Source: Pseudomonadota bacterium
Lineage (GTDB): Bacteria > Pseudomonadota > Gammaproteobacteria > JAKAQQ01
NCBI GenBank assembly: GCA_021810635.1
Contig: JAJZIH010000004.1
Location: 76,131-140,130, forward strand
Length of the DNA: 64,000 nucleotides
Direction of reading: 5' to 3'
Under the pieces are notes generated by a model, which made no database searches, was not told where the DNA came from, and saw nothing but the letters and a program-made list of their open reading frames with translations. Position numbers and translations under genes: made by a program. Below, in pieces: positions 6,707 through 56,002 of the stretch (position 1 is the stretch's first letter; each line of letters starts with the position of its first letter).

Positions 6707-6728
6707 CCGCCGCGCCCGCCGGCGGGAC

Positions 6729-8289
6729 CTAGATCGCGGAGCCGGTGTCGTAATCCGCGGCGCAGGTCTGGTCCGTTCCCCGGGTGGATGAGAACGCGGA
6801 CAGCAGCAGGGTCCCCAGAATGGAGGCGGCGAAATTGAGGAGGACGGCCACGACCGCGATGTAGACCGGCATCGCTTCCCGGCCCCAATGGATGACGGTC
6901 ACCGCACTGGTGAAATGGTTCATCGCCATGAGGCTGGTTCCGGTCGCCATGCCGAGTGTCCAGCCGGCGACCAGGGCCCAGCGGTGGAACCAGCGCGTAT
7001 AGAGACCGGCGGCGACGCTCGGCAGGAGCTGGATGATCCAGATCCCGCCCAACAGTTGGAAGTCGATCGCATAGTGGAAGGGAATCTCGAGGACGAAGAG
7101 CAGGGCTCCGATCTTGATCGCGAGTGAACTCCATTTCGCGGCCCGGGCTTCGGTGGCGGGAGCGGCCTGCGGATTCACGTAGGTCCGGTAGATGTTCCGG
7201 GTGAAGAGATTGGCTGCGGCAATCGACATGATGGCGGCCGGGACGAGTGCTCCGATGGCGATGGCGGCCAGGGCCACGGCGGCAAACCAGGGGGGGAAGT
7301 TGGCCAGAATCAGGGCGGGCACGGCAAAATTGCTGCCGTAGCGGTGAAAGGCCGGGGCGAAGGCCGCGGCGGCCAGCGCCCGGTGATCGGCCATGGCCAT
7401 GAACCCGAGGAAACTGAGCAGGCCGAGGATGAAGCTGTAGGCCGGCAGATAGGTCATGTTGCGGCGGATGACCCCGGGGTTTTGTGCACTGAGGACGCCG
7501 GTCGTGGCATGCGGATAGAGGAAGAGGGCCAATGCGGAGCCCAAGGCCAGCGTGATGAAGGCGCTCGCCGGACCCAGGGAATGGGCCGCGGAGGCGGGCA
7601 GGAGCAACCGGGCCGGGGGGACCGCTGCGAAGATCTTCCCATAGCCTCCGAGGTGCATCGGAATGATCACGATACAGGCCAGTGCCGTAATGTAGATGAG
7701 GGCATCCTTGACGACGGCGATCAGGGCGGGGGCCCGGAGACCGCTGGTGAACGTGTAGGCGGCGAGAAATCCGAAGGCGACGATCAGGGGAAGGCCGGCC
7801 CAGGAGCCTCGTAACGGGAATCCCACGGCGGCCAGGACGACTTCGAGGCCGATCAACTGAAGGGCGATATAGGGCAGCGTGGCCAGGATTCCAGTCAGGG
7901 CAACGAGCAGAGCCAGGGTCGGGCTGCCGTAGCGGCCCTGCACGAAATCCGCCGTTGTGATGTATCCGTTGTCGGCGACTGACCTGCCAGAGCCGTGGCA
8001 GCGCGAGCAGGGCCACTGGGAATGCGATGATGGTGTAGGGGAGGGCAAAGTAGCCGAGGGCGCCCGTCCCGAAAATCAGTGCGGGAACGGCAATGAAGGT
8101 ATAGGCCGTGTAGAGGTCGCCCCCCAGGAGAAACCAGGTCAGCCAGCCGCCGAGACGTCGCCCGGCCAGGCCCCATTCCTCAAGCCGGTCCAGGGGGGCG
8201 CGTCTCCAGCGCGTAGCCAGAAAACCCAGAACGGTGACCAGCGCGAAAAGGCCGACAAAGATGAGGAGCGGAGTCGTCTCGGGTTTCAT
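6729..8289 (-). pseudogene. Sodium:solute symporter (SSF) family transporter, interrupted by a single frameshift near 7968
   Basis: The N-terminal ~107 aa (MKPETTPLLIFVGLFALVTV...ALPRLWQVSRRQ) lie in the frame of track ORF 6235..8370. The remaining ~413 aa (GYITTADFVQGRYGSPTLALLVALTGILATLPYIALQL...) lie in the frame of ORF 6729..8048. The junction CGA CAA C GGA TAC carries one extra base relative to a continuous reading. Confidence 0.7.
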
Positions 8290-8567
8290 GGCGGCTTTTT
8301 TCGGCGGGCCGGGGATTTGCGGATCAGGTAGGCCACGAGCCCGTTGAAGACACCGGACAGAGGGATCCAAGCCAGCAGATAGACGTAAAAGAAGGGAATC
8401 CCCCAGAGGATCGGATGTCGGTGGTTGAACACGGGGACCCAGAGGCTCCCGAGGATGGGAATGAGGAGGAGAAGGGCCCAGTATCCTCGGCGCGACCGAT
8501 GCCGGTCGTTCTCCCCCGTTCCGTCAGGGCGTGGGGCCACGATGGCTGGTTCCGGGTGGCGCTTCAT
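8286..8567 (-). CDS. DUF3311-type small membrane protein (usual partner of SSF symporters)
   Basis: 93 aa with two TM helices (YWALLLLIPILGSLWVPVF, ILWGIPFFYVYLLAWIPLSGV). ATGA overlap with the symporter start (8286-8289) and with the GT2 stop (8564-8567). Confidence 0.6.
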   Translation of the reverse strand: MKRHPEPAIVAPRPDGTGENDRHRSRRGYWALLLLIPILGSLWVPVFNHRHPILWGIPFFYVYLLAWIPLSGVFNGLVAYLIRKSPARRKKPP

Positions 8568-9313
8568 GGCGGAGGGTTCCGGGTCCGGCAGCGACCGGAG
8601 CCCCGCCAGTGGGTCAGCACGACTGCACTGATGGCGAGAGTGTCCCGGATGGGCCGAAAGTGGCTCCGCCGGGCATCGGCGGGATAGTGCCCCGACACCG
8701 GGATTCCGATGATGGGGAATCCCTGACGACCGAGCGAGATGAGGACTTCGCTTTCAAATGGGAAACCCTGGGTACGCGGAGGCCGGTGCGTGATGGCGGC
8801 GATCGCCTCCGCCGGATAAACCCGGAAACCCGACTGCGTGTCCTGGAGCGGGATCGTGGCCAAGTGCGAAATGAAACAGTCGGCCACCCGGTTTGCCCCG
8901 ACCCGGATCCGCGGGGCGGCGGTCTTCTCGCGGATACCCAAGATCAGGGCACGCGGGTTCCCGGCCGCCGCCCCGAGCAGCTGCGGGATGTCCGCCGGAT
9001 CGTGCTGGCCGTCCCCATCCAGGGTGACCACCCAACGATACCCGTGCTGGCGTGCGAACCGGAAGCCGGTGAGGAGGGCGGCTCCCTTCCCCAGGCGCCG
9101 GGCATGTCGGATGACCGTGGCCCCGTGCGCGGAGGCGATCCGTGCCGAATCGTCCCGTGATCCGTCGTCGGTCACGAGGCACGGATGGTGCAGGGCGAGT
9201 ACCCGGTCCAGCAGAGAGGCCAGGGTCCGGCTCTCGTCGAGCGCCGGGATGAGGACCAGTACCGGGGCCGGTTCGGGTTCGTGGGAGGTCGCGACCGAGA
9301 CGGGAGTTTTCAT
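8564..9313 (-). CDS. Family 2 glycosyltransferase
   Basis: 249 aa. Motifs: LVLIPALDES, VTDDGSRDDS, TLDGDGQHD, DTQSGFRVY. ATGA overlap with the upstream KS-like gene. Confidence 0.8.
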   Translation of the reverse strand: MKTPVSVATSHEPEPAPVLVLIPALDESRTLASLLDRVLALHHPCLVTDDGSRDDSARIASAHGATVIRHARRLGKGAALLTGFRFARQHGYRWVVTLDGDGQHDPADIPQLLGAAAGNPRALILGIREKTAAPRIRVGANRVADCFISHLATIPLQDTQSGFRVYPAEAIAAITHRPPRTQGFPFESEVLISLGRQGFPIIGIPVSGHYPADARRSHFRPIRDTLAISAVVLTHWRGSGRCRTRNPPP

Positions 9314-10077
9314 GCTGGCGGGCGGTTCCGGGCAGCCAGGTGGAGGATCAGGTCGTGCTGCTCCGAGAGGGGAAAGATCCTGCTTTGGGGAGGGGGTGCG
9401 ACTTCGCTGGTGTCTCCGAAGCCGGCCGGCGGCCAGGGATCTGCCGGAACGGGTGCCGCGCCCAGGGATCGCTCACGGAGTTCGAAGGTCAAAAGCCGCC
9501 TCGGGCGGCGGTCCGGATCGGGTGGTTTTGGGGATTCGAGGACGAAGGCCGACGCACGCGCGGGGGGCGAGCCAAAAACCGGTTTCAGGCGGTCGGGAAC
9601 CGTCATCTCGTAATAGACATAGAGCACGGGGGTTTCGGGTTCCGCGCGGAGTTGCCCGAGTGCGGCAAGAAAACCCATGGCGAACGAAAAGGGCCCGGCG
9701 GCCACGGCACGGCAGGGATTCCTGGATTGCGCGGCAATGGCCCAGTAGCCCGCCGCGGTGTTGTGCACGGAGTTGTGGAACAACACGGGAGACAACTCCA
9801 GGGGTTGTTCCACCAGGGTGGTACAGAGTCGGTCGGTGATTTCGAGCTCGCCCAAGGCCGAGGAAAAAACGGTCGACAGGGTTGCAGGTTGCCGGCCGGC
9901 CTCGAGGCAGGCCCGTTCCGCTGCGAGACCGCATAAACGAGCGGCGCGCGTGGCATGGCGCAGTTCCGCGTGGGTGAACGCCACGGGTTCGGTAACCATG
10001 GAACCTTCCGGCGAGCGGTCCGGGTCCGCGCAATCGTCCGCAAACCCCAAGCCCGAGAGCCAGACGTGTTCCCCCAT
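9310..10077 (-). CDS. Beta-ketoacyl synthase N-terminal-like protein without catalytic Cys (chain-length-factor-type KS partner)
   Basis: ATG at 10077, 2 nt after the KS stop. The motif LSPVLFHNSVHNTAAGYWAIA is typical of the Cys-less KS-like partner found in aryl-polyene-type clusters. The longer track ORF (to 10542) overlaps the KS gene and is rejected. Confidence 0.6.
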   Translation of the reverse strand: MGEHVWLSGLGFADDCADPDRSPEGSMVTEPVAFTHAELRHATRAARLCGLAAERACLEAGRQPATLSTVFSSALGELEITDRLCTTLVEQPLELSPVLFHNSVHNTAAGYWAIAAQSRNPCRAVAAGPFSFAMGFLAALGQLRAEPETPVLYVYYEMTVPDRLKPVFGSPPARASAFVLESPKPPDPDRRPRRLLTFELRERSLGAAPVPADPWPPAGFGDTSEVAPPPQSRIFPLSEQHDLILHLAARNRPPA

Positions 10078-10079
10078 GG

Positions 10080-11234
10080 TCAGGCTCCTGAAAAGATCAG
10101 GGCGCAGTTGTTGCCGCCGAACCCAAAGGCATTGGACAGCACGTAATGCGGGTGGGCGTGTTCGTGGTGCAGAAGGATCCGGCTCCGCAGACTGGGATCG
10201 CATTCCTGCGTATTCAGCGTTCTGGGCAGGAAGCCACTGTCCAGGGTCAGGAGGGAGAAAAGCGCTCCCATCATGCCGGCCGCGCCCAGAGTGTGGCCAG
10301 TCCAGCCCTTGGTCGAGCTCACGGGGGTTTCTCGTGGAAAGAGACGGCTGATGGCCCGGTCTTCCGAGGCATCGTTGAGCCGGGTTCCCGTGCCGTGGGC
10401 ATGGATATACCCGATGTCCGTCGGCCGGATCCCGGCCATCGCCAAGGCACGGGACATGGCCAGCCAGGCCCCCTCTCCATCCGGATGGGGGGCCGTGATG
10501 TGATAGGCGTCCGAGCTTTCCCCATAGCCGGCCAGTCGCCACGGGGCCGGCTGGCCTGAGACCAGCATCAGCGCCGCGGCCTCCCCGAGATTGATCCCCG
10601 CCCGGGCCCGGTCAAAGGGACGGCAGACCGTCGGCGTGATGAGGTTGAGCGCGCGAAAGCCAAAGAGGGTCGTCATGCACAGGCTGTCGATTCCGGCCAC
10701 CACGGCTGCATCGATCCATTTCTGTTCCAACCACTGGTGGGCCAGTGCGAGGGACTGTGCGCTGGATGAACAGGCCGAGGAGACCGTGATGGCCGGACCG
10801 GCGATTGGTAGACGCTGGCCAAGATAGCGGGTCGTCGCATGGAGTTCGAAGGTATCCCCGAGGCGGTCCGCGGGATCACAGGGTTCGTTCCGTTTCCGGC
10901 TGTAGGTTTCCTCGAGTGTCGCGATTCCCGAAGAACTGGTGCCGACGATGAGACCGATCCGGGATGCTCCGAACCGTCCGGCGGTGGCCTGTACGGCCGC
11001 CTCAAACTGGTCCAGTCTGAGCGCCATCTCGGCCAGGCGGTTGTTCCGGCAGTCGAAGTGCCGGAGTCGTTCCGGCAGACGGATCTCGTCGAGTCCGGAA
11101 ACGGCCCCGACATGGGTGGAGAGGGGCCCGGCCCAAGGGGTCAGACCCGGCCGGTCCTCGAGCAGGGCCTGCCGGAGTTCCCGGCATCCCTTGCCGCAGC
11201 TGGCCGTGGCGGAAAACGCATGGATGTACAGCAT
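10080..11234 (-). CDS. Beta-ketoacyl-ACP synthase (FabF/KAS II-like, Cys-His-His)
   Basis: 384 aa. Active-site motifs: ITVSSACSSS (Cys), YIHAHGTGT (His), GWTGHTLGAAG (His), NAFGFGGNN. Confidence 0.85.
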   Translation of the reverse strand: MLYIHAFSATASCGKGCRELRQALLEDRPGLTPWAGPLSTHVGAVSGLDEIRLPERLRHFDCRNNRLAEMALRLDQFEAAVQATAGRFGASRIGLIVGTSSSGIATLEETYSRKRNEPCDPADRLGDTFELHATTRYLGQRLPIAGPAITVSSACSSSAQSLALAHQWLEQKWIDAAVVAGIDSLCMTTLFGFRALNLITPTVCRPFDRARAGINLGEAAALMLVSGQPAPWRLAGYGESSDAYHITAPHPDGEGAWLAMSRALAMAGIRPTDIGYIHAHGTGTRLNDASEDRAISRLFPRETPVSSTKGWTGHTLGAAGMMGALFSLLTLDSGFLPRTLNTQECDPSLRSRILLHHEHAHPHYVLSNAFGFGGNNCALIFSGA

Positions 11235-11236
11235 GT

Positions 11237-13534
11237 TCAGGAAGCGGGCTGCGGTTCGCGAAAGCCGGCTCCGAGCGAAAAAGCGAGGGCCGTGTCCAGC
11301 AGGACCCCGAGACAGACGGTGAGACCGATGGTCACCAGCATGGGAACTCGGCTCAGGATGAGCGGGAGGAAAACCGTAAGCACGATGAGCATGCTGATCA
11401 GGATGACGTCTCGTGTCGGGTGTCGGGTCGGGGCTCGCGAAACCGAAAGAAAGATACTGTAATCGAGACCGAGCCCGAAGACCAGAAAGAGCCCGATCAG
11501 CACGTCCAGATCCGGCCGGATGCCCATGGCATTGAGGAGCGCCAGGGTCGATGAGACGCCGAGGACCGGTGTGCCGACGAGATGAAGAGTTCGCCCGACG
11601 GACCGGGTGAGCAGGCCCAAGAACAGGATGACGGCCCCCAGGACGGCGAATCCGATTTCAGCCAGGCGGTCGGTCAGTCCCTGCCGGAGATGTGACAAGG
11701 CGTGCGACAGGCGGATGAGGTGGAGATGGGGAATCGGGTGGCTTTCGAGGAGCCGGTTGAGTTCCGGATCCGGTGTCGTGGACAGCAAGGGCACCCAGGA
11801 AATCCAGCGATGACCGGGATGCATGAGTTCGCTCTGGACCAGGAATCGCCATCGGGTCCGGAGCAGTTGCGGCCGGCCAAGGACGGGAAGCCGTCGGCTC
11901 CGCTCGAGTGCATGGGTAAACGGATCAAAGAAGGCCGGGGTAAAGGGCAGGCCCGCCAGAGCCCGGATGAGCCTACGGTGGAGGCGTTTCGGGCCGGGGA
12001 TTGCCCGCTCGCGGCGGATCTGCACCGAGGGGGGGGGCAGGAGACGGGTGACGGTGAGAAAGCGCAGGCCCAATCCCCGGCGACGCTCGCGGTCCAGCAG
12101 TCTTTGCAGGTTTTGGGTCCGGTTGAGGACGACGTTCAGGTGGGGGGCGGTCAGCACCAGGTAACGGCCGATTCTCCGGGCGCCCATCGCCTGGCGCAGC
12201 TGGCGCGTCGTCCGCGTCAGGGACGCGGGGAGTCCAGATAGGGAGGAAGATCCCGTCTGCCACCGGAGAGGGTGGACCAGGAGAAGGAACGCGGTGAGCA
12301 GGAAGACCGAGAAAGCGAATCCACGGTGCGGGCGCAGGATCCGGCCAACGGTTTCAGGTCGGTCCCACCGGAAGGGCTGGAGGGGGACGGGCCCAAGCGC
12401 CACTGTGATCAGTCCGCCGCCGACCAGGCCGATGGCCCCCATGACGCCGATCTGTGCCAGGTCGGGGACTCCTGCCGACAGGAACCCTAGGTATCCCACG
12501 CCGCCGGCGGCGGCGGCGGTGAGTACGGTCCGGCGGTGCTCGGCCAGGGATTCCGGTTGGGCGTGGGCATGCATCCAGAAATACAGGGGGTGATCGACCA
12601 CCATCCCGATGACGATCCCGGCACAGGCCAAGGACAGTTCATTGACGGATCCGAAAATCCCCTCGGCCGCGAGCAGGGCCGACCCCACGGCCAGAGCCGG
12701 AATGGCGAAAAGGAGGAGTGCGGTTTTGAGGCTTCGGAAGAGGAACCAGAGCCCGATCACGAGCAGGATCGTGCTGGCGATGGCGAGTCCGGTCATCCGC
12801 GTGCGGATGCGTCGGGACAGGGCCGTGGCGATGGGGGCAACGCCTCCGAGCCTGAGGTGCGCCGGGCCGAGTCCGGCGCGGCGGATTCCCCGCCGGACGG
12901 CCCGGAGAGCGCGGGCATCGCTGGCGAGATCCCAGCCGGAATGGACGAGGATGGCGGCCAGAAGCGCCATGGGCGGATGGGGGGCGAACCAGACCCCATG
13001 GCTTTCGGGTGGGGTGGGCAGGAGCCGGATCCCCTGCAGCCAATGGGGCCAGGCGCGTGTCGGATCGAGTCGCAAGAGATCCGCTTCCCCGGGCCCCCCA
13101 GGCCCGGCCAGGATTCCCAAATCCTGAACGAACGTCCGGTGGAGTCCGGCGGCGGACCAGGGCCGCGTCCGGTTCGGGTGAACCAGCAGGTAGCGGTAAC
13201 GGAAAGGGACTTCACGCCGTAACAAGGTCATGGACAGGGCCCCCGGCGAGGGGGAGTGGTCCAGCACGGCGACGAACTCCGGGTCGCGGGAGAGGTCACG
13301 CTGCAGCGCGCGGGAGGCTCCGATCAGCCGTTGGGCTGGAGCCCCCTGGAGTCCAATGAGGATCAAATGATTGTCAAGACCGTGTTTGACCTGGCTCAGG
13401 ACCAACCGGGCCCGGGATCCGGACGCTGCTGGCAGGAAACCGCTCAGGCGGCTCCCTGGATGCGGGTGGTCGAGCAGGATGCCCAGAACCACGAGGAGCG
13501 CCCCTCCGAAAATCAGAACCCTTCTTTTCGGCAT
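11237..13534 (-). CDS. MMPL/RND-superfamily predicted lipid exporter
   Basis: 765 aa. Two clusters of ~5-6 TM helices are separated by large soluble loops, the architecture of the 'predicted exporter' of aryl-polyene-type clusters. The stop lies 2 nt before the KS start. Confidence 0.75.
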   Translation of the reverse strand: MPKRRVLIFGGALLVVLGILLDHPHPGSRLSGFLPAASGSRARLVLSQVKHGLDNHLILIGLQGAPAQRLIGASRALQRDLSRDPEFVAVLDHSPSPGALSMTLLRREVPFRYRYLLVHPNRTRPWSAAGLHRTFVQDLGILAGPGGPGEADLLRLDPTRAWPHWLQGIRLLPTPPESHGVWFAPHPPMALLAAILVHSGWDLASDARALRAVRRGIRRAGLGPAHLRLGGVAPIATALSRRIRTRMTGLAIASTILLVIGLWFLFRSLKTALLLFAIPALAVGSALLAAEGIFGSVNELSLACAGIVIGMVVDHPLYFWMHAHAQPESLAEHRRTVLTAAAAGGVGYLGFLSAGVPDLAQIGVMGAIGLVGGGLITVALGPVPLQPFRWDRPETVGRILRPHRGFAFSVFLLTAFLLLVHPLRWQTGSSSLSGLPASLTRTTRQLRQAMGARRIGRYLVLTAPHLNVVLNRTQNLQRLLDRERRRGLGLRFLTVTRLLPPPSVQIRRERAIPGPKRLHRRLIRALAGLPFTPAFFDPFTHALERSRRLPVLGRPQLLRTRWRFLVQSELMHPGHRWISWVPLLSTTPDPELNRLLESHPIPHLHLIRLSHALSHLRQGLTDRLAEIGFAVLGAVILFLGLLTRSVGRTLHLVGTPVLGVSSTLALLNAMGIRPDLDVLIGLFLVFGLGLDYSIFLSVSRAPTRHPTRDVILISMLIVLTVFLPLILSRVPMLVTIGLTVCLGVLLDTALAFSLGAGFREPQPAS

Positions 13535-14118
13535 GCGAGCCAGGAAACCGGGGTCAGCCGGTAATGCGACCAGTCTCCATTGCGGTACTGGATGGCCAGA
13601 CGGCGCAGGACGGATCCTGTGCCCCGGAGCCTCAGCGCGCGGAGACTGCGCGATCCGTTGTGGTGACGCGGGGTGAGATGCAGGGTCCAGAGCGAGGCAT
13701 GGGCTTGATAGACCAGATGGAATGCCCGTTTGAGCATCCGATCATGCCCGGACAGGAGTGACTGGAGGGCCTGGGCCAGGATCTGGAGATCGGGGACCAG
13801 CGAGAGGGCAATCGTCCGGCGTTGCCCCTTCGCATTGATGCTCCAGGCTTCCTTCCGGTTCATCCCGTACCGTTTCCGGACCGGGGAGAGCATGATGTCG
13901 GCCAGATGATCCGGTCGCCGGTAGCACCAGAGTCCGCTGGCCCGGATCTTCCCGTAGAGAAGTCCCACGTGTTCGGTTTCATGGTAGGCCGCGGCGAGCC
14001 GGGGTTTTTGCGCGAACGCCAGCAGAATGGCCCGCCAGGTGGGGTTGGCGGCCGGGGAAGGGCTGGCCGCCGCAAGGAGAACCAGCCCCGGAAGACAAGT
14101 GAGACCGATCCGTTTCAT
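13513..14118 (-). CDS. LolA-like periplasmic lipid-carrier protein
   Basis: ATG at 14118 in ATGA overlap with the acyltransferase stop. Signal peptide MKRIGLTCLPGLVLLAAASPSPAA. The later pattern LLSGHDRMLKRAFHL...WTLHLTP...LRALRLRG resembles the LolA-like proteins of these clusters. The track ORF start at 14307 is rejected. Confidence 0.5.
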   Translation of the reverse strand: MKRIGLTCLPGLVLLAAASPSPAANPTWRAILLAFAQKPRLAAAYHETEHVGLLYGKIRASGLWCYRRPDHLADIMLSPVRKRYGMNRKEAWSINAKGQRRTIALSLVPDLQILAQALQSLLSGHDRMLKRAFHLVYQAHASLWTLHLTPRHHNGSRSLRALRLRGTGSVLRRLAIQYRNGDWSHYRLTPVSWLACRKEGF

Positions 14119-15035
14119 GGTGGATCCAAGGGGCGCCAGAAATCGTAAAAGTTGAACCAGTTCATGGGATAGCGGCGTGCCTGATGTTCCAATCGTTGCA
14201 CATATTCTTGCCCGATGCCCAGAGCCGTCTCTTCGATTGTGGGTGCGGCCCGAGCGGTCAAGGGCTCGATCAGGATCCGGTAGTGCCGTGACCGTTCCTG
14301 AATACAAAAGAAGGTGAAGGTCGGGGGGGCCAGTCGGGCGGCGAGATAAAATGGGGTCAGCGGAAATTCAGCCGTTTGGCCGAGAAAACCGGTCTTCCAG
14401 GTGCGTGACGCCACGGGCGCCCGGTCGGCGAGCATCGCGAGAAGCCCGCCGGACTGGAGGTGGGTCTGCATGGCCAGAATGGCGTAGGGATCGTCGGTCC
14501 GCAGGACCGAGAGTAGCCCTTGGGGCCTGAACTTTTCCAGAAAGGCAGTGACCGGGCGGGCTTCCGCCGGATGCATGACGATTTTGAGGGGCAGGGAGAG
14601 GGATTCTCCCAGGGATCGCATGACCTCGAAGCTGCCCAGATGGGAGCCGAGCAGGAGGACGCCGTCACCTCTCCCAAGGGCGCTTTGTACGGGCTCGAAC
14701 CCCTCCGTGACGAAGTGATAGCGCGGATCCAGGCCGGAGGTCAGGATGATCCGGTCGTGGAGGGTGGCCGCGTAGGTCCAGAGATGAAGGTAGACGTTCC
14801 AGATTCTGATCCGGCGGTGGACACGGGCCTGCTGCAGGAACTGTCGCGAGGAGCGGGTGGTCGGTCGCGAGGTCAGGAGAAAGTACAGAACGATTCCAGG
14901 CAGAAACAGGCGCCCGGCGGTGTATCCGATGGTTTGGGTGATCCACAGGATCAGGCGGATCGCCCCCGGGGTGCCCCGGTCGGGCTGGGTTTGCCAGTTC
15001 ATCGACACACCTGGCAACGTCTCCCCGCCCGCCAC
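14115..15035 (-). CDS. LpxL/HtrB-type (LPLAT) lysophospholipid/lipid A acyltransferase
   Basis: 306 aa with an N-terminal TM region and GVLLLGSHLGSFEV (the HX4D-position region is degenerate). Ends ...YPMNWFNFYDFW, typical of the family. An alternative start is ATG 15002. Confidence 0.7.
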   Translation of the reverse strand: MAGGETLPGVSMNWQTQPDRGTPGAIRLILWITQTIGYTAGRLFLPGIVLYFLLTSRPTTRSSRQFLQQARVHRRIRIWNVYLHLWTYAATLHDRIILTSGLDPRYHFVTEGFEPVQSALGRGDGVLLLGSHLGSFEVMRSLGESLSLPLKIVMHPAEARPVTAFLEKFRPQGLLSVLRTDDPYAILAMQTHLQSGGLLAMLADRAPVASRTWKTGFLGQTAEFPLTPFYLAARLAPPTFTFFCIQERSRHYRILIEPLTARAAPTIEETALGIGQEYVQRLEHQARRYPMNWFNFYDFWRPLDPP

Positions 15036-15047
15036 CCGGACTCGCCC

Positions 15048-16427
15048 TCAGTGGGCAGCGGAATCATGGGGCTGGGCCAGATGTTCGCGGTAAAGCCCGG
15101 CCAGGGTGGCCTGGCTGATTTTGCCGGTGGGATGATGGGGAATCTCCTCGACAACCACGAGCGGCCGCGGCAGAAATGGGCCGTCGATGCGTTGTCTGAG
15201 TTGGACGAGGATCGATTCGGGCGGAAGGCCCGGGGCGACGACAAAGGCCACTAGCCGTTCGGGCTCGCCGCGGGTTTCCCGTTCGCGGGGGTGGTAGAAG
15301 GCTCCGGACCTGACCCCCGGGATCCCGAGGAGGGCTTCGTTGAGTGCGGCGAGCGAGGCTCGGCGCCCAGCCACCTTGACGATATCTTGCCGTCGTCCAA
15401 GAAGGCGCAAGTGGGTGGAGTCAAGGGCCTCCACTTCGTCATCCAGGAACCGCGTCGTTCCCTGTCGACGCCAGGCGATGCAGGGGCGCTTCCCCTGCCG
15501 CGCCAGTTTCACATGATCGAGAAGATGCCAGTTTTCCTCCCGGACCGTTCTCCGGGTGGCCAGTGCTCCGGTTTCCGTGCTGCCGTAGACTTCCACCACC
15601 GGGGTTTTGAATCGTTTCTCGGATTCGCGTGCCAAGGCCGTTGACAGGGGGGCGGTCGAGCAGACGATCAGACCGAGCCCGGCCACCGTCAACCCGCTCT
15701 CCACGAGTGCGCGCAGATGAAAGGGCGTGGTGACCAGCAGGGCACAATGGCCCAGAGTGGCCGCCGCCCGGATATCCGGCGGGAAGAGCAGCCGCTTGCG
15801 ATAGAGGCTGACCCCGGCGCGCCAGGGCATGAACAGGCCATGCTCAAGTCCATAGAGATGGTAGGGGGGGACGGTGGACAGAACATGGCTAAAACGCCGG
15901 ATTCCCAGTCTTCGGCCGACGGCATCGGCACTTTCCAGCAGTTGGGTCCAGGATTTGAAATGCAATCCGGGAGACTGTGTGGTCCCGGAACTCCACAGGG
16001 CGATCTGGCCGCGGGGCAGGGGATTTTTCCGTTTCCGGTCAGGGTCCGGGCTGGATGGAGGGGTGAGGAAGGCCACCAAGCGGGGGGTTGCCGATGTGCT
16101 GGCTTCCTGGGACAACAGGAGAGAGGGAGCGTCCAGGGACAGGGAGCGGAGCAGTGCGGAGGCACTTTCAGGATCCGGTGCCAGAAGAATCCGCATCCGG
16201 TGTCGGTGGGCCCACAGCAGGCCTTGGGCAAAGCATTGGAAATCCTGAGCCAGGTTGACCACGAGTGAGGGTGGAAGGGTGCCTTGGCCATCTCCGGGCA
16301 CCTCCGGTCGCGGGGGCGCCCATTCGATGCCGGAGCCGGCTCCCCGGGCGGTGAGCGGCCGCGGATGCCACAGGAGGGGCTCCGGCGTGGCGGGCGGGGT
16401 CAGGGGGCACTCTGGGGCGACGGTCAC
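15048..16427 (-). CDS. Adenylate-forming (AMP-dependent) acyl/aryl-ACP ligase
   Basis: 459 aa. Motifs: LWSSGTTQSPG (A3-like), VYGSTETG (A5), GRRQDIVKVAGRRASL (A8), PTGKISQ (A10). GTGA overlap with the ACP stop. Confidence 0.8.
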   Translation of the reverse strand: MTVAPECPLTPPATPEPLLWHPRPLTARGAGSGIEWAPPRPEVPGDGQGTLPPSLVVNLAQDFQCFAQGLLWAHRHRMRILLAPDPESASALLRSLSLDAPSLLLSQEASTSATPRLVAFLTPPSSPDPDRKRKNPLPRGQIALWSSGTTQSPGLHFKSWTQLLESADAVGRRLGIRRFSHVLSTVPPYHLYGLEHGLFMPWRAGVSLYRKRLLFPPDIRAAATLGHCALLVTTPFHLRALVESGLTVAGLGLIVCSTAPLSTALARESEKRFKTPVVEVYGSTETGALATRRTVREENWHLLDHVKLARQGKRPCIAWRRQGTTRFLDDEVEALDSTHLRLLGRRQDIVKVAGRRASLAALNEALLGIPGVRSGAFYHPRERETRGEPERLVAFVVAPGLPPESILVQLRQRIDGPFLPRPLVVVEEIPHHPTGKISQATLAGLYREHLAQPHDSAAH

Positions 16428-16714
16428 CGGGTCCGGTTTTGTGCCACATACAGGCTGAGTTGGCTCAAGTTGCGAAAAATCTCCTGCGATTCCGCGCGAT
16501 CCTCCTGAATCTGGATGCCGTAGCGCTTGGACAGTGCCAAGGACAACTCCAGAGCGTCAATGGAATCCAGTCCCAACCCCCGTTCCCCGAACAACGGCTC
16601 TTGCGGGTCAATCTGGTCGGGCAGGCGCCGCAACTTGACTGCCTGAACGAGCACGGCGGCGATTTCCCGTTGCCAATCGGTAAGAGCGGAGGCGGCGGTT
16701 TTCTTAGTCGTCAT
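16424..16714 (-). CDS. Acyl carrier protein
   Basis: From ATG 16714 the product is 96 aa with the phosphopantetheine-attachment motif GLGLDSIDALEL. The track ORF extends to 16783, so the start is uncertain. Confidence 0.8.
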   Translation of the reverse strand: MTTKKTAASALTDWQREIAAVLVQAVKLRRLPDQIDPQEPLFGERGLGLDSIDALELSLALSKRYGIQIQEDRAESQEIFRNLSQLSLYVAQNRTR

Positions 16715-16909
16715 CGTTCCATCAGTTTCTTCGGGCAGGAGAAGCGGAGATGCTGACGTCGTCATTGGATGCAACCATTCCACCGGGTCGGGTTTACGCG
16801 TGGGTCGGCGAGGTCACGGGGATCCGCGTCCATCCCCTCCCCATTTCAGCCTAGCATACGGCCCCGGGACCGACAATCACGCCGCTGCAACTGAGGGGCA
16901 GGAGGGTGA

Positions 16910-19521
<2,612 letters not shown>

Positions 19522-19881: not shown

Positions 19882-20675
19882 CCATGGCGTTTCTCTCCCT
19901 CACGGATCACGGACCCATCCGGGAGATCGAGATGAACCGGCCACCGGTCAATGCCATCGACCTGGAGCTGGTCAATGAGCTTCAGGCAGCGTTGCGGACC
20001 GGAGCGGAGACGCCGGTCCGGGCGTTTGTTCTTTCCGGCCAGCCTAACTTCTTTTCTGCCGGGCTGGATCTGCCCGCTCTCCTGAATCTGGATGAAACCA
20101 GCATGGCCGTTTTCTGGCGGCAACTGGTCATGCTCCTGCAAACGATTGCGTTGAGCCCCGTCCCGATCCTGGCGGCGATGACCGGCCATAGTCCGGCTGG
20201 CGGAACGGTTTTGGCCCTGTATACAGATTATCGTGTGATGGCGCGCGGAGAATACAAGATTGGACTCAACGAGGTGCAGGTTGGATTGCCGGTTCCACAC
20301 TTTATCCAGCGCGGGCTGGCTCGCTTGGTCGGGGTGCGACAGGCCGGACGCTTGGTGATGGAGGGGCAGCTGCTCAATCCGGACGAGGCGTGTGCAATCG
20401 GTTTGGTGGATGAGCTGGCGGCCACCGATCAGGTTCGCGAATGCGCCCTGCAGAAAGCCCGGCACTGGCTCACCTTGCCCGAGGCGGCTTTCCGGACGAC
20501 GCGCGAGATCTCGAGAAAGGGCCTCGATTTCATGGCCAAAAAGCAGGCGGAGGTCGAGACGATGGTGGCGTTCTGGTTCCGTCCCGAAACGCAGGAGGCT
20601 CTCCGCCGTTATGTCGATACCCTTCGCGAGCGTCGCGATCGGGAACCGGACCGGTCGTGGCGCAGCAAAACGTAA
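19878..20675 (+). CDS. Enoyl-CoA hydratase/isomerase (crotonase) family protein
   Basis: 265 aa. Motifs: EMNRPPVNAI, FFSAGLDL, GHSPAGG. GTGA overlap with the ftsB stop; ATG 19884 is an alternative start. Confidence 0.8.
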   Translation: MTMAFLSLTDHGPIREIEMNRPPVNAIDLELVNELQAALRTGAETPVRAFVLSGQPNFFSAGLDLPALLNLDETSMAVFWRQLVMLLQTIALSPVPILAAMTGHSPAGGTVLALYTDYRVMARGEYKIGLNEVQVGLPVPHFIQRGLARLVGVRQAGRLVMEGQLLNPDEACAIGLVDELAATDQVRECALQKARHWLTLPEAAFRTTREISRKGLDFMAKKQAEVETMVAFWFRPETQEALRRYVDTLRERRDREPDRSWRSKT

Positions 20676-37457: not shown

Positions 37458-37895
37458 CTAAACAGGAACAAAGCTGACTTCCTGCTTCGCCGAGGCCGGT
37501 TTCACGCGAGCCTTGGGCCGGTGCGGATCATCCTGGCTATCGACGGGGCGATGGAGACGAACCACTGATTGGCCACACGGGAGATCGTGGCCGACAGGAT
37601 CTTGCCAGAAAAGCGCAACGTCTCGCGCATAAGTCGGGCGCAAATCCTCGCGCCGCCGCCCTTTGGGCGTGCGCTCGTCCAAGACGGGCTTCCCTTTGCG
37701 CTCCCAGCGCTGCAGCGTTTGCGTCGCGACGCCCAGGAACTCGGCAGCTTCGTGAATGCGAGCTCTCTTGCGAGATACGCTCAAACGATACACAGTCGCC
37801 AATGGCCCAATAACGCGAAACGACTGCGTTAGCAGTTCAGTCCTCTGCAACCGATTCCGCTCATCCAGGTCCAGCTGCCGGCATTTCTTTCCCAT
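37458..37895 (-). mobile_element. Degenerate IS607-type relic: ORF with a MerR-like HTH (TnpA N-terminus) overlapping an out-of-frame TnpB fragment
   Basis: ATG 37895 is preceded by GGAGGTGGAGA. The ORF contains IHEAAEFLGVATQTLQRWERKGKPVLDERTPKGRRR...TYAR, the pattern of IS607 serine-recombinase N-termini. In a different frame, 37502-37632 reads LRFSGKILSATISRVANQWFVSI, a hallmark TnpB/OrfB motif. No intact recombinase or TnpB is present. Confidence 0.4.
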
Positions 37896-37979
37896 TCTCC
37901 ACCTCCGACTCCTCTTTGAACCATCGGTGTTGCCGTGCATTCTGGATGCGTGCCCTGTTTAGGGCCGGGATCCCGCGTC

Positions 37980-39236
37980 CTACACGCTCGGCTGGAAGGC
38001 GGGAGCGAATACCTGCAGGTCTGCGTCGGTGAGTCCGACCTCCTTGGACGTTGCGATCTCGCGCCAGTTCGCCACGGCGGCGGCCATCGCGTTTGTCTCT
38101 TCCTGGGCCTCGATGGACTGCAGCCCGAAGTAGGTACTCCCGTGGATGAGTTGCTCCAAGGAAGTAATGGGCCCTGTGTCTTCCGACAGCCAGGTCTTGG
38201 ACTCCCTGACCCGATCCGGAAACGGGTTGACGTCGAAGACGGGCGCGAGCCGCCACTGACCGTTGCCCGTGTACAAAACACCCACGTTCCACAGATGATC
38301 ATCGACATTGTTGATGAGGAAATTGAACAGGAGTCGACGCCACAGTTCGCGCACGTCCTCGGCAGGCCTCGCGCTGACCCGACGCAGCGCATCGGCAAGT
38401 TCCGTATAGGCGCGGTCCTCATCCCGTCGGGCTTGGAGCAGCGAACCTCCTGACAGGTACGCGATGCGGGCTCCCTCGGCGGTTCGATCAAATCGGCGGA
38501 TGATCGAGACCGGCGTGCCGTCGACTGCTTCAACTCGTGCCTGAGCGACATCGAGCTTGGCGAGTGCCGCGAGCTTGAGCGCGAGCACCTCACCCCGCAC
38601 GACGGAGCGCGTGTCACTGATGCTTGGGAACTTGCCAAGTGCGAGTGCTCCATCCGTATCCAGCACGGTGCACTTCGGCCGAAGGCCGCCCAGGGAGGTG
38701 CCCTTCCCCTGAAGGAAGCGAAGATCGGCCTCGGTTTCAGTACCCTGCTCGACGGCGCGGGTTGAGGCGTAGATCTTTTCAAGCTCGCTGAACTGTGGAG
38801 TGTGAAACTCGGGGTCCGATCGAAGGAAATGGCCCTTCGCGTCGCGCAGGCGCAGCGCCCCGATGCGGCTGAAGTCATCGACCGCGGTGAGGAGATCGAA
38901 CCGCGTCAGCGCTCCAAGCGTGGAGTCGCGTTGGCGGAGTTTCGCGTGAGCGCGCTGAATGATGCGCTTCCCCCACGTATCCGGTTCTGTGTCCGCCAAG
39001 GCAAGGGGAAATGGCGAATCCTCGCCGGACGATGCGCGGCGCGTGAAATACCCCTCTCGAAGCGGCAGATCCGGGGAGATTTCAAAGCGCTCAGCGTGGG
39101 CCAGCCAAGACTTGCGATAGGTGAAGGCGGAATACTCGCGGCGGCCGTCGCGCAGAAGCGCAAGTTCGCCGACCTCGAGTGCCGCGCGCCCGACCCACAC
39201 GCTCGCCTCCTGCCGGGTCGTAGTGCGCGCGTTCAC
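37980..39236 (-). CDS. hipA: HipA-family serine/threonine kinase toxin (type II TA)
   Basis: 418 aa. Motifs: GTSLGGLRPKC (P-loop-like), NNVDDHLWN (catalytic loop), LAPVFDVNP. Confidence 0.85.
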   Translation of the reverse strand: MNARTTTRQEASVWVGRAALEVGELALLRDGRREYSAFTYRKSWLAHAERFEISPDLPLREGYFTRRASSGEDSPFPLALADTEPDTWGKRIIQRAHAKLRQRDSTLGALTRFDLLTAVDDFSRIGALRLRDAKGHFLRSDPEFHTPQFSELEKIYASTRAVEQGTETEADLRFLQGKGTSLGGLRPKCTVLDTDGALALGKFPSISDTRSVVRGEVLALKLAALAKLDVAQARVEAVDGTPVSIIRRFDRTAEGARIAYLSGGSLLQARRDEDRAYTELADALRRVSARPAEDVRELWRRLLFNFLINNVDDHLWNVGVLYTGNGQWRLAPVFDVNPFPDRVRESKTWLSEDTGPITSLEQLIHGSTYFGLQSIEAQEETNAMAAAVANWREIATSKEVGLTDADLQVFAPAFQPSV

Positions 39237-53284: not shown

Positions 53285-54679
53285 TCAAAGCTCCCCCGCC
53301 TCAATCATGCGGATGAGTGTTGAAATGTCCACGCCGTAGTTCTTCTCCCGCTTCTCATGCTTGTGTGGGTCATAGGCTTCGGGCGGGCGCAGCGGACGCT
53401 CTTTCTCCATCACCGGCAAGCCGTAGCCGATGGCATCATCCGGCAGGCCATAACCCATTTCGACCGGTTCCGGCTCGCGCTTTCGCTCGAATCTTGGACG
53501 CTTCTGTTTGTGGCTGTGAATGCTCTCGGTGAACAGCACCTTGGTCCGCAATGCCTCGAACGAGTAGCCCCGGCCTAGCCGGTTCATCACCCGAATCAGG
53601 CTGTTCAGCGACTCCGTGTAGGCGTTCGTCACTGGGTGCTCGAAGTAGTTGAGGATGAACGGCTGCCAGTTGGTGAAGGCGCGGATCAGGTCGGCGAAAT
53701 AGGGTCTGATCTCGGTCGAGATGACCCTATGCCACGCCTCGTAGCGCCGCATGGCGTCCTCTGGCGTCTCGGCCTCATAGATGCCGTAGAAGTCCTCCTT
53801 GAGCCTGTACGTCTCACCCAAGGCTGGGTAGTTCTTCGTCCAGCTGTCGAGATTCAGTCGCTCTTTATCGTTTAGGTCGCTCTCGCGCTTCAAGAGCACG
53901 AATCGGTCGTGCATCAGTCCGCGCTTCTGCTTGATGGTCAGTTCGCCTCGCAAGCCCTTGCGTGCCTTCTCCATCGCGTCGTTCGCCATTCTGACGACGT
54001 AGAACTTGTCGATGACGATGGTCGCCTCGGGTAGTACCGCACTGACCGCATCGCGGTAGGGCACCCACAGATCCATCGCCACGTACTGCACCTGGTCCCG
54101 GTTCGGCATCTTGAACAGGTACTTCTCCACTGTGTCCTTGTTCCGGTTGTGGAGCATGTCCACGATGGTGTTGTTCTGGATGTTCGAGACGACGCAGCGC
54201 GGCTTGTTGATGATGTGGATTTCGTTTATGCCCATCCACTTCGGCGTCTCGAAGTGGACGGTCTTCTCAAGCTCACCGATGTAGCCGCGGAAGATGTTGC
54301 GGATCGTCCCTTCAACTAGGCCGGTTTCATCGGCCAAAGAGGTGAAGGTGCGTTTCAACGCCTGTTGCCCGATCCACTTCACCAGCCGCTCGGTCATCAT
54401 GCGGTTCTCTGCTAGCACCGGCAGCGCCTGCGAGAAGGTCTTGCCACAGGATTGACAGCGCAACCGCTTGGTATCGATGTAGATGCCCACACGCTTGCCG
54501 TGCATCGGCATGTCTTTGAACACCTGCTCGCGGGTGCCCCACGAGGTCAGACGGTCGGACTGGCAGTGCGGGCAGGCTGAGGCCACGTCCACCGGCTCGG
54601 CGGTAACGTGGTAGTCGTGGTTGGTTTCCTCCACGCGCAGCACTCGGTACTGCGGGAGATTCAGGATGTTGGTGGGCAT
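53285..54679 (-). CDS. ISL3-family transposase
   Basis: ATG 54679 gives MPTNILNLPQYRVLRVEETNHDYHV, a zinc-ribbon (CPHCQS...CQSCGKTF), then WMGINEIHI, YVAMDLW.PYRDAV, VIDKFYVVRMAN and TNAYTESLNSLIRVMNR.GRGYSF. The track start at 55018 overlaps the toxin gene and is rejected. Confidence 0.9.
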   Translation of the reverse strand: MPTNILNLPQYRVLRVEETNHDYHVTAEPVDVASACPHCQSDRLTSWGTREQVFKDMPMHGKRVGIYIDTKRLRCQSCGKTFSQALPVLAENRMMTERLVKWIGQQALKRTFTSLADETGLVEGTIRNIFRGYIGELEKTVHFETPKWMGINEIHIINKPRCVVSNIQNNTIVDMLHNRNKDTVEKYLFKMPNRDQVQYVAMDLWVPYRDAVSAVLPEATIVIDKFYVVRMANDAMEKARKGLRGELTIKQKRGLMHDRFVLLKRESDLNDKERLNLDSWTKNYPALGETYRLKEDFYGIYEAETPEDAMRRYEAWHRVISTEIRPYFADLIRAFTNWQPFILNYFEHPVTNAYTESLNSLIRVMNRLGRGYSFEALRTKVLFTESIHSHKQKRPRFERKREPEPVEMGYGLPDDAIGYGLPVMEKERPLRPPEAYDPHKHEKREKNYGVDISTLIRMIEAGEL

Positions 54680-54746
54680 TTCAGGACGCGCTTTGCCAGG
54701 GGAACCGCGAAGCAGCCTTACGCCACCAAGACCCTTCCAGTCGAAT

Positions 54747-55472
54747 TCATGGTTCCATCCCATAATCATCAGAACGATCTTCTTCCATATTGCACACTCG
54801 GTCGAAGATGACGGCTGAGAGGTGGGAACAAGCCACTTTAACCCCCTGCCAGTCATGCCAGCGAGGATCAAGGTTCTTGTACTCGCTGAGTTCAGTTTCT
54901 TCCAAGTCATAGGGCAGCGCGTTGGCAAGCTGGACTTGTAACTGCTGTAGCGGAGATTCGCCACTCTCTTGCTGGTAGAGCCGGTCGAATGATAGTAGCG
55001 CATGGGCAACGCTCTCATCGCCCATGTGATCGGCCAAAGCCACGAAGTCCAGGTAATCCCGCGTGGCGTTGCGCTTGAGGATCAACACCCCCTTGATGCG
55101 CAGAATCTCACCCTCGGTCGGAACGGTGATTCGCGCCCCATGGTAATCCACCACAGTCGTTTCCAATGGTTCATCCCGAAGAAGCTGGCGAACCCCGGTT
55201 TCGATGCCGTCGAGGCTGCCAAGGATTTGCACGGGTCGCTGCACACGGGCCGTTTTCCAGCCAGCGACCGACTCAAGCTCGGCCAGCACTTCGTCAAAGC
55301 GGTGACGCAGATCGGTCAGCACGTGGTCGGCGTCACGGGAGAAGCGGTGTTCGGCATGGATGGCCGAGGCGGTTCCTCCAACCAACACGGCATCTGGCAG
55401 GATGCGCTGGAGCCGTGCTGCAGAGGACAAGACGAGTTCCCAGTCAGGCAGTGCTGCGGTGTTCTTCGGCAT
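54747..55472 (-). CDS. AbiEii/AbiGii (DUF1814) nucleotidyltransferase toxin family protein
   Basis: 241 aa. The N-terminal motif AVLVGGTASAIHAEHRFSRDADHV corresponds to the GG(T/S)A...R.S.D.D nucleotidyltransferase signature of type IV TA toxins. Confidence 0.7.
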   Translation of the reverse strand: MPKNTAALPDWELVLSSAARLQRILPDAVLVGGTASAIHAEHRFSRDADHVLTDLRHRFDEVLAELESVAGWKTARVQRPVQILGSLDGIETGVRQLLRDEPLETTVVDYHGARITVPTEGEILRIKGVLILKRNATRDYLDFVALADHMGDESVAHALLSFDRLYQQESGESPLQQLQVQLANALPYDLEETELSEYKNLDPRWHDWQGVKVACSHLSAVIFDRVCNMEEDRSDDYGMEP

Positions 55473-55925: not shown

Positions 55926-56002
55926 AAGGCGCGTAGCTCAGCTGGTTAGAGCACCACCTTGACATGGTGGGGGTCGTTGGTTCGAGTCCAATCGCGCCTA
56001 CC
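55926..56002 (+). tRNA. tRNA-Val (anticodon GAC)
   Basis: Hand-folded cloverleaf. The acceptor AGGCGCG pairs with CGCGCCT. D arm TAGCTCAGCTGGTTAGAGC, anticodon arm CCACC-TTGACAT-GGTGG, T arm GTTGG-TTCGAGT-CCAAT, encoded ACCA end. Near-identical to E. coli tRNA-Val(GAC). Confidence 0.95.

Follow-up and report, generated by a model that had tools for sequence, protein, structure and literature searches.

The 64-kb window analyzed here (the whole stretch of 64,000 nucleotides, from contig JAJZIH010000004.1 of GenBank assembly GCA_021810635.1) carries ten consecutive minus-strand open reading frames (ORFs), running from 16714 to 6729, the first eight of which are identified by their sequences as a derived cluster within the xanthomonadin-like branch of the aryl-polyene (APE) family. 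We hold with moderate confidence that the locus is an APE-derived cluster that has shed four genes, is maintained by selection, is coupled to a resident DUF3311-mctP transporter pair, and probably makes a product other than a polyene. APE/xanthomonadin clusters are widespread and specify outer-membrane pigments. The conjugated polyene of APE lipids depends on a dedicated pair of ketoreductase (KR) and dehydratase (DH); the variant sheds these enzymes and keeps loading, condensation, anchoring, and export. It thus represents a natural experiment on the cargo that the anchoring and export machinery may carry besides polyenes, and on the adaptation of a type II ketosynthase (KS)/chain-length factor (CLF) pair after partner loss. 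The searches covered the window plus 8 kb past its left end, i.e., ∼72 kb of one contig. The window sequence is identical to metagenome contigs ENA ERZ27236985 and JGI 3300033990, and its PyrG is 66 to 69% identical to those of Thioalkalivibrio, Ectothiorhodospira, and Steroidobacteraceae, the host being an uncultured gammaproteobacterium.

An original prediction, made from the sequence alone, had assigned the cluster to the APE/xanthomonadin type and had named grouping of the KS, ligase, and ACP with housekeeping Fab or lipid A enzymes as an outcome that would overturn this assignment. NCBIfam and PDB scores instead favor ApeO and ApeC. The KS (384 aa, 10080 to 11234, minus strand; ketoacyl-synt N- and C-terminal domains, E = 8.8e-16 and 8.4e-33) scored 444 bits against NF006618 (cutoff, 407), and the acyl carrier protein (ACP; 96 aa, 16424 to 16714, minus strand; PF00550 PP-binding, E = 8.6e-8) scored 91.5 bits against NF006617 (cutoff, 70). 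The KS and ACP of the complete cluster of "Candidatus Thiodiazotropha" (locus L008) match the same two models. The best solved-structure matches of the KS were XdApeO (6QSP_A, 244 bits) and AbApeO (7F28_B, 230 bits), FabF reaching at most 163 bits. The CLF, a half-size, Cys-less KS partner of the ApeC type (255 aa, 9310 to 10077, minus strand; PF13723 Ketoacyl-synt_2, E = 8e-21), matched only XdApeC (6QSP_B) and AbApeC (7F28_A) in the PDB. Conversely, the KS fell short of the housekeeping cutoffs, with 200 bits versus the 494 required by TIGR03150 (fabF) and 118 bits versus the 630 required by the FabB model NF005935. Its catalytic residues are conserved (the Cys-His-His triad Cys155, His280, and His314, along with Lys309), and it also retains the gating Phe372, Phe193, and Ala154 and the surface His245 noted for AbApeO (gating, cavity, and surface residues for this comparison were taken from PMC8358021). 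Outside the window clade, the nearest KS homologs among the matches listed are 41 to 51% identical and reside in clusters with ApeI-like, ApeP-like, KR, and GT2 genes.

What sets the window clade apart is the lack of reductive genes. Our synteny survey covered 80 loci among the matches listed from a KS-alignment search of genome contigs, no member of the window clade being among the matches listed. Nineteen proteobacterial loci listed had a complete block, defined by ACP, ligase, LPLAT, MMPL, KS, and CLF genes within 10 kb. Both types of hot-dog DH were linked to every one of these 19 blocks, and a FabG-like KR lay within 10 kb in 15 of them (it was missing in L018, L023, L028, and L041), whereas both DH types and the KR were missing from all four lineages of the window clade, as was the membrane protein at the ApeG position. 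Absence of KR and DH is thus unique to this clade among the loci surveyed. The typical complete order is ACP, a membrane protein of 200 to 220 aa (occupying the position of E. coli ApeG), ligase, ApeI-like DH, LPLAT, LolA_3, MMPL, KS, CLF, ApeP-like DH, KR, and GT2, often with an added halogenase. The eight window genes follow the order of L008, L011, L014, L015, L017, L025, and L038 minus the four missing genes, and the same arrangement recurs in three sister lineages. The positions of the lost genes are now tight, with a GTGA between ACP and ligase (16424 to 16427), 12 nt between ligase and LPLAT (15036 to 15047), and an ATGA between CLF and GT2 (9310 to 9313). As judged from these comparisons, four genes have been cleanly deleted, namely, those for the ApeG-position membrane protein, the ApeI-like DH, the ApeP-like DH, and the FabG3/ApeQ-like KR. 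The original prediction had considered the whole set of lacking genes unusual. This view stands for KR and DH, but the missing thioesterase, second ACP, and starter-acid gene do not distinguish the window, since the closest complete clusters among the loci listed lack them too, and single-ACP xanthomonadin clusters have been noted before (PMC8253772).

Searches of the sequence itself were consistent with the survey. No homolog of the KR, the DHs, the ApeG-position membrane protein, or the halogenase was detected across the 64-kb window by tblastn with the proteins of a complete relative (the best hit for the KR, a short-chain dehydrogenase/reductase, had an E value of only 0.87) or by iterated profile searches of all window ORFs of at least 50 aa. 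Profile searches of the sister loci did not reveal ApeI/ApeP dehydratases or a KR either. Pfam annotation of the other window genes and of the 8 kb past the left end yielded housekeeping genes only, with no fatty acid synthase (FAS) genes nearby. An FkbO/chorismatase domain was likewise not found among the annotated genes, which is a weak test because many complete relatives likewise have neither the halogenase nor the XanB2-type chorismatase nearby.

The three sister lineages, one of them represented by the metagenome-assembled genome GCA_027320085.1, carry the cluster at the same locus, with KS and PyrG proteins 78 to 80% and 88% identical to those of the window, respectively. Pairwise Nei-Gojobori estimates among the four lineages gave ratios of nonsynonymous to synonymous substitution rates (dN/dS) of 0.06 to 0.41 for all ten genes, with dS values of 0.25 to 1.55; for comparison, pyrG and kdsA gave 0.06 to 0.11, and ordinary neighbors such as a crotonase gene gave 0.19 to 0.27. 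All eight biosynthetic/export ORFs are intact in the four lineages. The cluster is thus maintained by purifying selection across four or more species-level lineages, all belonging to one uncultured clade of gammaproteobacteria. The symporter gene, as the original prediction had noticed, is indeed frameshifted in the window, by one extra A at ∼7970 (minus-strand GCCGACAACGG versus GCCGACACGG in contig L003). L003, which is 99.97% identical to the window and was found in five samples, has an intact symporter gene (519 aa). Each of the two mctP alleles, frameshifted and intact, was recovered in assemblies of several samples. The single-base difference is therefore probably genuine strain variation that leaves the permease inactive, and it is uninformative on the biosynthetic genes.

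The clade sits on a long, isolated branch of the family. Its eight proteins are 8 to 14 identity points further from the proteins of complete clusters than the latter are from each other, and no sequences intermediate between the clade and complete clusters were found among 5.8 billion clustered proteins. One apparent intermediate KS (P0005; L097, 682 to 2436; 472 bits) was rejected because part of a single KS gene is duplicated in tandem in it; this 584-aa "KS" on a 2.4-kb contig, 45 to 47% identical, is most likely an assembly artifact whose score was inflated by the duplication. We then listed fixed substitutions, i.e., changes that every one of the four lineages has at positions with at least 90% conservation elsewhere. 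In the KS, AKVF is replaced by AQSL just after the active-site Cys155, and NLHGT by HAHGT just before the catalytic His280. Two surface motifs are altered in the CLF (ERRR to xLRH and SPT to SPV), and the P-loop of the ligase has a Gly-to-Gln change. The Thr of the CLF SPT motif corresponds to AbApeC Thr83 by alignment to 7F28_A, and the Arg run of ERRR, in a stretch outside this alignment, probably corresponds to Arg30/Arg31. In the structural paper on AbApeC, Arg30, Arg31, and Thr83 are conserved surface residues with a likely role in ACP docking (PMC8358021). We infer only that the fixed changes would be consistent with retuned partners or substrates.

The last two genes of the operon encode a small DUF3311 membrane protein (93 aa, 8286 to 8567, minus strand; PF11755, E = 2.5e-10), the first gene of the resident mctP operon, and the frameshifted monocarboxylate permease MctP, an SSF symporter (6729 to 8289, minus strand; SSF, E = 4.2e-13). 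The intact 519-aa MctP of L003 scored 659.4 bits against the NF046076 equivalog model (cutoff, 625), and the frameshifted window protein scored 486 bits over its C-terminal 439 aa. Permeases of the MctP type are known to transport pyruvate and other small monocarboxylates. DUF3311-mctP is a pyruvate-induced two-gene operon in Sinorhizobium fredii, where deletion of DUF3311 has a negligible effect on growth on pyruvate (PMC9100948). The window pair has the same two-gene arrangement as in Rhizobium/Sinorhizobium, and the MctP cutoff is passed by the intact allele; it differs in lacking its own promoter gap, in being stop-start coupled to GT2, and in the frameshift of the window strain. Locus L096 (77% PyrG identity) has DUF3311-mctP next to pyrG without the cluster, in an otherwise identical neighborhood (Tricorn, OmpA, DUF3301, amino-acid permease, PNPOx, OYE, SSF-DUF3311, pyrG, kdsA, ftsB, crotonase, and Smr). 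Because L096 carries the pair at the same locus without the cluster, the comparison identifies the transporter pair as resident there and the eight genes as an indel between the pair and pyrG. Alignment of the pyrG-proximal intergenic region to L096, intended to map the insertion point, recovered nothing alignable. The link of the transporter to the cluster probably arose by adjacency and was then tightened, and the pair would most simply be a neighboring housekeeping operon captured into the same transcript rather than an original pathway component.

The coupling of the transporter pair to the 3′ end of the cluster, as originally predicted, proved even tighter in the relatives, although DUF3311-mctP operons like this one are standard. 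All three sister lineages encode GT2 and DUF3311 in a single in-frame ORF of 340 to 342 aa with a variable Pro/Gly-rich linker (L007, 11931 to 12959; L091, 11910 to 12938; L093, 11925 to 12947), the counterpart of window positions 8286 to 9313. The in-frame ATG of DUF3311 is kept in L093 and lost in L007 and L091, and both halves of the fusion are under purifying selection. The combination of PF00535 and PF11755 was not seen outside the clade among the best 120 database matches. Related GT2 proteins often have a hydrophobic C-terminal extension of their own, and the fusion may do no more than provide a membrane anchor. GT2 may conceivably be linked to MctP in function, although nothing specific supports this. 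The fusion bears on the role of DUF3311 proteins.

In the pathway that we propose, the ligase would adenylate a carboxylic-acid starter and load it onto the ACP, and the KS/CLF pair would condense the starter with malonyl-ACP. Without dedicated KR and DH, the chain would either stay a short beta-keto acyl or be turned into a saturated one by the housekeeping FAS, so no conjugated polyene would form. LPLAT and GT2 would next join the chain to a glycerophospho- or glyco-lipid anchor, and MMPL together with the LolA-like protein would deliver the lipid to the outer membrane. In Xenorhabdus, ApeD is responsible for placing an acyl chain on a lysophosphatidylglycerol and ApeJ for attaching both GalNAc and the chromophore. 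A conjugated polyene product is unlikely because the dedicated KR and DH pair is missing, as suggested by the Xanthomonas precedent, in which loss of fabG3, the cluster KR, abolishes the pigment and other 3-oxoacyl-ACP reductase genes fail to replace it (PMC6859482). Although we judge this improbable, the eight genes could constitute a self-sufficient type II KS/CLF lipid pathway devoid of beta-carbon processing, which would yield, instead of a polyene pigment, a glyco- or phospholipid carrying a beta-keto or poly-beta-keto (aryl)acyl chain and would have evolved from an APE cluster by loss of the reductive genes and retuning of KS, CLF, and ligase, its assembly being tied to a monocarboxylate importer via GT2::DUF3311. 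If this were true, such a lipid would be an undescribed class of outer-membrane lipid.

Several points weigh against our reading of the locus. Dedicated KR and DH genes, or even a second complete cluster, may lie elsewhere in the genome, beyond the ∼72 kb inspected. Split clusters do occur in the APE family, since the KR is unlinked in 4 of the 19 complete blocks, and the KS-CLF block lies apart from the other cluster genes in L010, L012, and L027 and in sub-blocks of its own in Xanthomonadales loci. The eight-gene difference from L096 could reflect either an insertion or a deletion, and the GT2::DUF3311 fusion, selected in three lineages, could mean that the transporter is functionally integrated. 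The product might still be a classical aryl polyene, with its KR, both DHs, and an ApeG-like protein encoded elsewhere in the genome and acting in trans, an alternative that such split architectures and the retention of the AbApeO cavity and gating residues (Ala154, Phe193, and Phe372) in the KS make conceivable but that we judge unlikely. Its weaknesses are that both DH genes are linked to the core in all complete blocks listed, that three separate excisions would have been needed for relocation, with a tight junction left behind by each, and that no homolog was found in the sequence searched; in addition, the clade-specific changes on the ACP-docking surface of the CLF and near the catalytic residues of the KS suggest altered partners. 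Somewhat less credible to us is that housekeeping FabG and FabZ, with or without FabI, process the intermediates toward an omega-aryl or unusual saturated or partly reduced acyl lipid. The cluster keeps only initiation, condensation, anchoring, and export functions, and Xanthomonas FabG3 can act on FAS substrates (PMC6859482), so the two systems have chemistry in common. However, the borrowing of FabG/FabZ suggested in the original prediction runs counter to precedent, given that other reductases did not restore pigment to the Xanthomonas fabG3 mutant (PMC6859482) and that the E. coli cluster no longer confers pigment after deletion of most of its core genes, even with the host FAS intact. FAS genes are also absent from the vicinity.

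The transporter offers another route to a different reading, in which MctP serves the pathway as importer of the carboxylic-acid starter, with lipid assembly tethered to it through the GT2::DUF3311 fusion. Stop-start coupling in the window, an in-frame fusion under selection that has lost its internal ATG in two lineages and is confined to the clade among those best matches, and the lack of a starter-acid synthesis gene in the cluster all speak for it. We nevertheless find it quite improbable: the pair is present at this locus in L096, which has no cluster, MctP is an equivalog of a carrier of pyruvate and other small monocarboxylates, a natural strain tolerates mctP inactivation, loss of DUF3311 has a negligible effect on growth of S. 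fredii on pyruvate, and the fusion may be a mere membrane anchor of the kind that related GT2 proteins often have as their own hydrophobic tail. The starter-acid import envisaged in the original prediction is thus left without specific support. That prediction had also raised a cluster in decay, and a functionless remnant could indeed be suspected from the frameshifted mctP and the four ancestral genes gone. This we regard as extremely improbable, since the eight ORFs remain intact and constrained in four lineages diverged to dS values of 0.3 to 1.5, their catalytic motifs are retained, and the frameshift is a single-base strain variant missing from the nearly identical L003 contig.

We compared the window cluster with characterized systems. 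Xanthomonadin-like APE clusters ("Ca. Thiodiazotropha" L008 and the Xanthomonas campestris pig cluster) have the eight families in the same order, a single ACP, and no cluster thioesterase; relative to them, the window is devoid of the ApeI-like and ApeP-like DHs, the FabG3-type KR, the halogenase, and the membrane protein of the ApeG position. With the ape clusters of E. coli CFT073 and Xenorhabdus doucetiae (ApeA-R), whose products are APE lipids, the window has in common the ApeO/ApeC pair and counterparts of ApeE, ApeH, ApeD, ApeL, ApeM, and ApeJ, but it lacks ApeQ, ApeI, ApeP, ApeR, ApeK, ApeB, ApeG, ApeN, ApeA, and the second ACP. The operational ape core of Grammbitter et al. 2020 consists of KS, ACP, CLF, DH, KR, and transporter; the window has the KS, CLF, ACP, and MMPL but neither the ApeI/ApeP DH nor the ApeQ/FabG3 KR, and it therefore falls outside that core. 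Genome mining with KR and DH as obligatory components would overlook clusters of this kind, and mining without that requirement would mislabel the window cluster as an aryl polyene. Similarly to cispentacin AmcF/AmcG and ishigamide Iga11/Iga12, the window has a heterodimer-type KS plus partner with a dedicated ACP. AmcF/AmcG and Iga11/Iga12 are KS/CLF-like pairs performing few or single condensations, and to our knowledge the cispentacin and ishigamide systems are devoid of lipid-anchoring or export genes. The window proteins scored weakly against AmcF (183 bits; cutoff, 325) and AmcB (28 bits; cutoff, 80), so the cluster is not a member of that group.

The remaining proteins of the cluster, all encoded on the minus strand, retain the hallmarks of their families. 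The Ser-containing motif GLDSIDALEL of the ACP includes a DSID that aligns with the ACPs of complete clusters. The adenylate-forming acid:ACP ligase (459 aa, 15048 to 16427; PF00501 AMP-binding, E = 6.5e-12, plus PF13193) is ApeH/XanA2-like and shares 34.5% identity (440 aa aligned, E = 3e-66) with its counterpart in the complete Thiodiazotropha cluster; it retains YGSTE and the TGK lysine, and its P-loop, SSGTTQ, is unusual. The LPLAT/LpxL-type, ApeD-like acyltransferase (306 aa, 14115 to 15035; PF03279 Lip_A_acyltrans, E = 1.8e-6) has the same HLGSFE (HX4E) motif as in complete clusters and a tblastn E value of 8e-49 to the L008 LPLAT. The secreted LolA-like carrier, which resembles ApeL (201 aa, 13513 to 14118; PF19574 LolA_3, E = 4.9e-14), begins with a signal-peptide-like N terminus, MKRIGLTCLPGLVLLAAASPSPA. 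The ApeM-like MMPL/RND-type exporter (765 or 751 aa, 11237 to 13534; PF03176 MMPL, E = 2.7e-7) is the most diverged component, retaining 57 of 96 conserved columns and matching the L008 MMPL by tblastn with an E value of 9e-50 over 749 aa. Finally, the ApeJ-like GT2 glycosyltransferase (249 aa, 8564 to 9313; PF00535 Glycos_transf_2, E = 8.2e-21) conserves DDGS and DGDGQH motifs like those of polyprenyl-phosphate glycosyltransferases.

The ORF check and Pfam searches confirmed the ten-gene operon as originally described in its coordinates, junctions, domain content, and flanks. Besides the three tight junctions given above, LPLAT and LolA-like genes meet at an ATGA (14115 to 14118), and the LolA-like and MMPL genes overlap by 22 nt (13513 to 13534); public gene calls place the MMPL start 42 nt further in (751 aa), which replaces this overlap with a 20-nt gap. 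Gaps of 2 nt separate MMPL from KS (11235 to 11236) and KS from CLF (10078 to 10079), and further ATGA junctions connect GT2 to DUF3311 (8564 to 8567) and DUF3311 to the symporter gene (8286 to 8289). Upstream of the operon lie the divergent pyrG and then kdsA; downstream, position 6706 marks the end of a convergent Oxidored_FMN (OYE) gene. The intergenic region at 16715 to 17074, common with the divergent pyrG and the sole sizeable noncoding gap upstream of the ten genes, presumably contains the operon promoter. A promoter scan of this pyrG-ACP region did not detect a sigma-70 consensus, an absence made uninformative by the 65% GC content. A terminator-like GC-rich hairpin followed by a T-tract (6707 to 6725, minus strand) comes directly after the mctP stop, as a consensus match only, six such sites having been found in the region versus 6.4 expected.

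Other observations concern the flanks and the relatives. A gene for a crotonase-fold enoyl-CoA hydratase (window 19884 to 20675, plus strand) comes after pyrG-kdsA-ftsB and shares their strand. All relatives examined, with or without the cluster, conserve it at this position, and it encodes the sole dehydratase-type fold near the cluster, to which it is probably unrelated. The region upstream of pyrG is variable among relatives (L096, 7669 to 10001; L095, 1 to 5400; L098, 1 to 10000). L096 has DUF3311-mctP alone in this region. L095 and L098 (PyrG, 78 to 79% identical) were considered as bearers of a complete cluster at the locus and were rejected, because they have a different, distant lipid/polyketide synthase-like set with a KS only 33% identical (PAP2, an orphan Ketoacyl-synt_2, Trp-halogenase-like, FabV enoyl reductase, KSIII-like, BtrH_N, KS, ACP, and ABC2 permease). 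L041, tried as a second independent stripped cluster, was discarded too, as ApeI-like and ApeP-like genes are present. Among the complete clusters, L018 (3047 to 4690) and L028 (5628 to 7283) have the ligase and the ApeI-like DH in a single stop-free ORF, which may be a natural fusion. L015 and L016 are complete clusters of the proteobacterial type, with KS proteins 45% identical to that of the window, on contigs binned as Nitrospira and "Candidatus Planktophila lacus" (an actinobacterium), respectively, a binning that indicates either horizontal transfer or mis-binning.

Elsewhere in the window, genes for a MerR-type helix-turn-helix protein and a HipA-like kinase toxin (HipA_C, Couple_hipA) are adjacent at 37458 to 39236 on the minus strand and may form a toxin-antitoxin pair. 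An ISL3-family transposase gene (DDE_Tnp_ISL3; 53285 to 55018, minus strand) lies ∼0.9 kb from the sole tRNA gene of the window (55927 to 56000, plus strand), and the local GC content falls to 0.585 at 54 to 56 kb.

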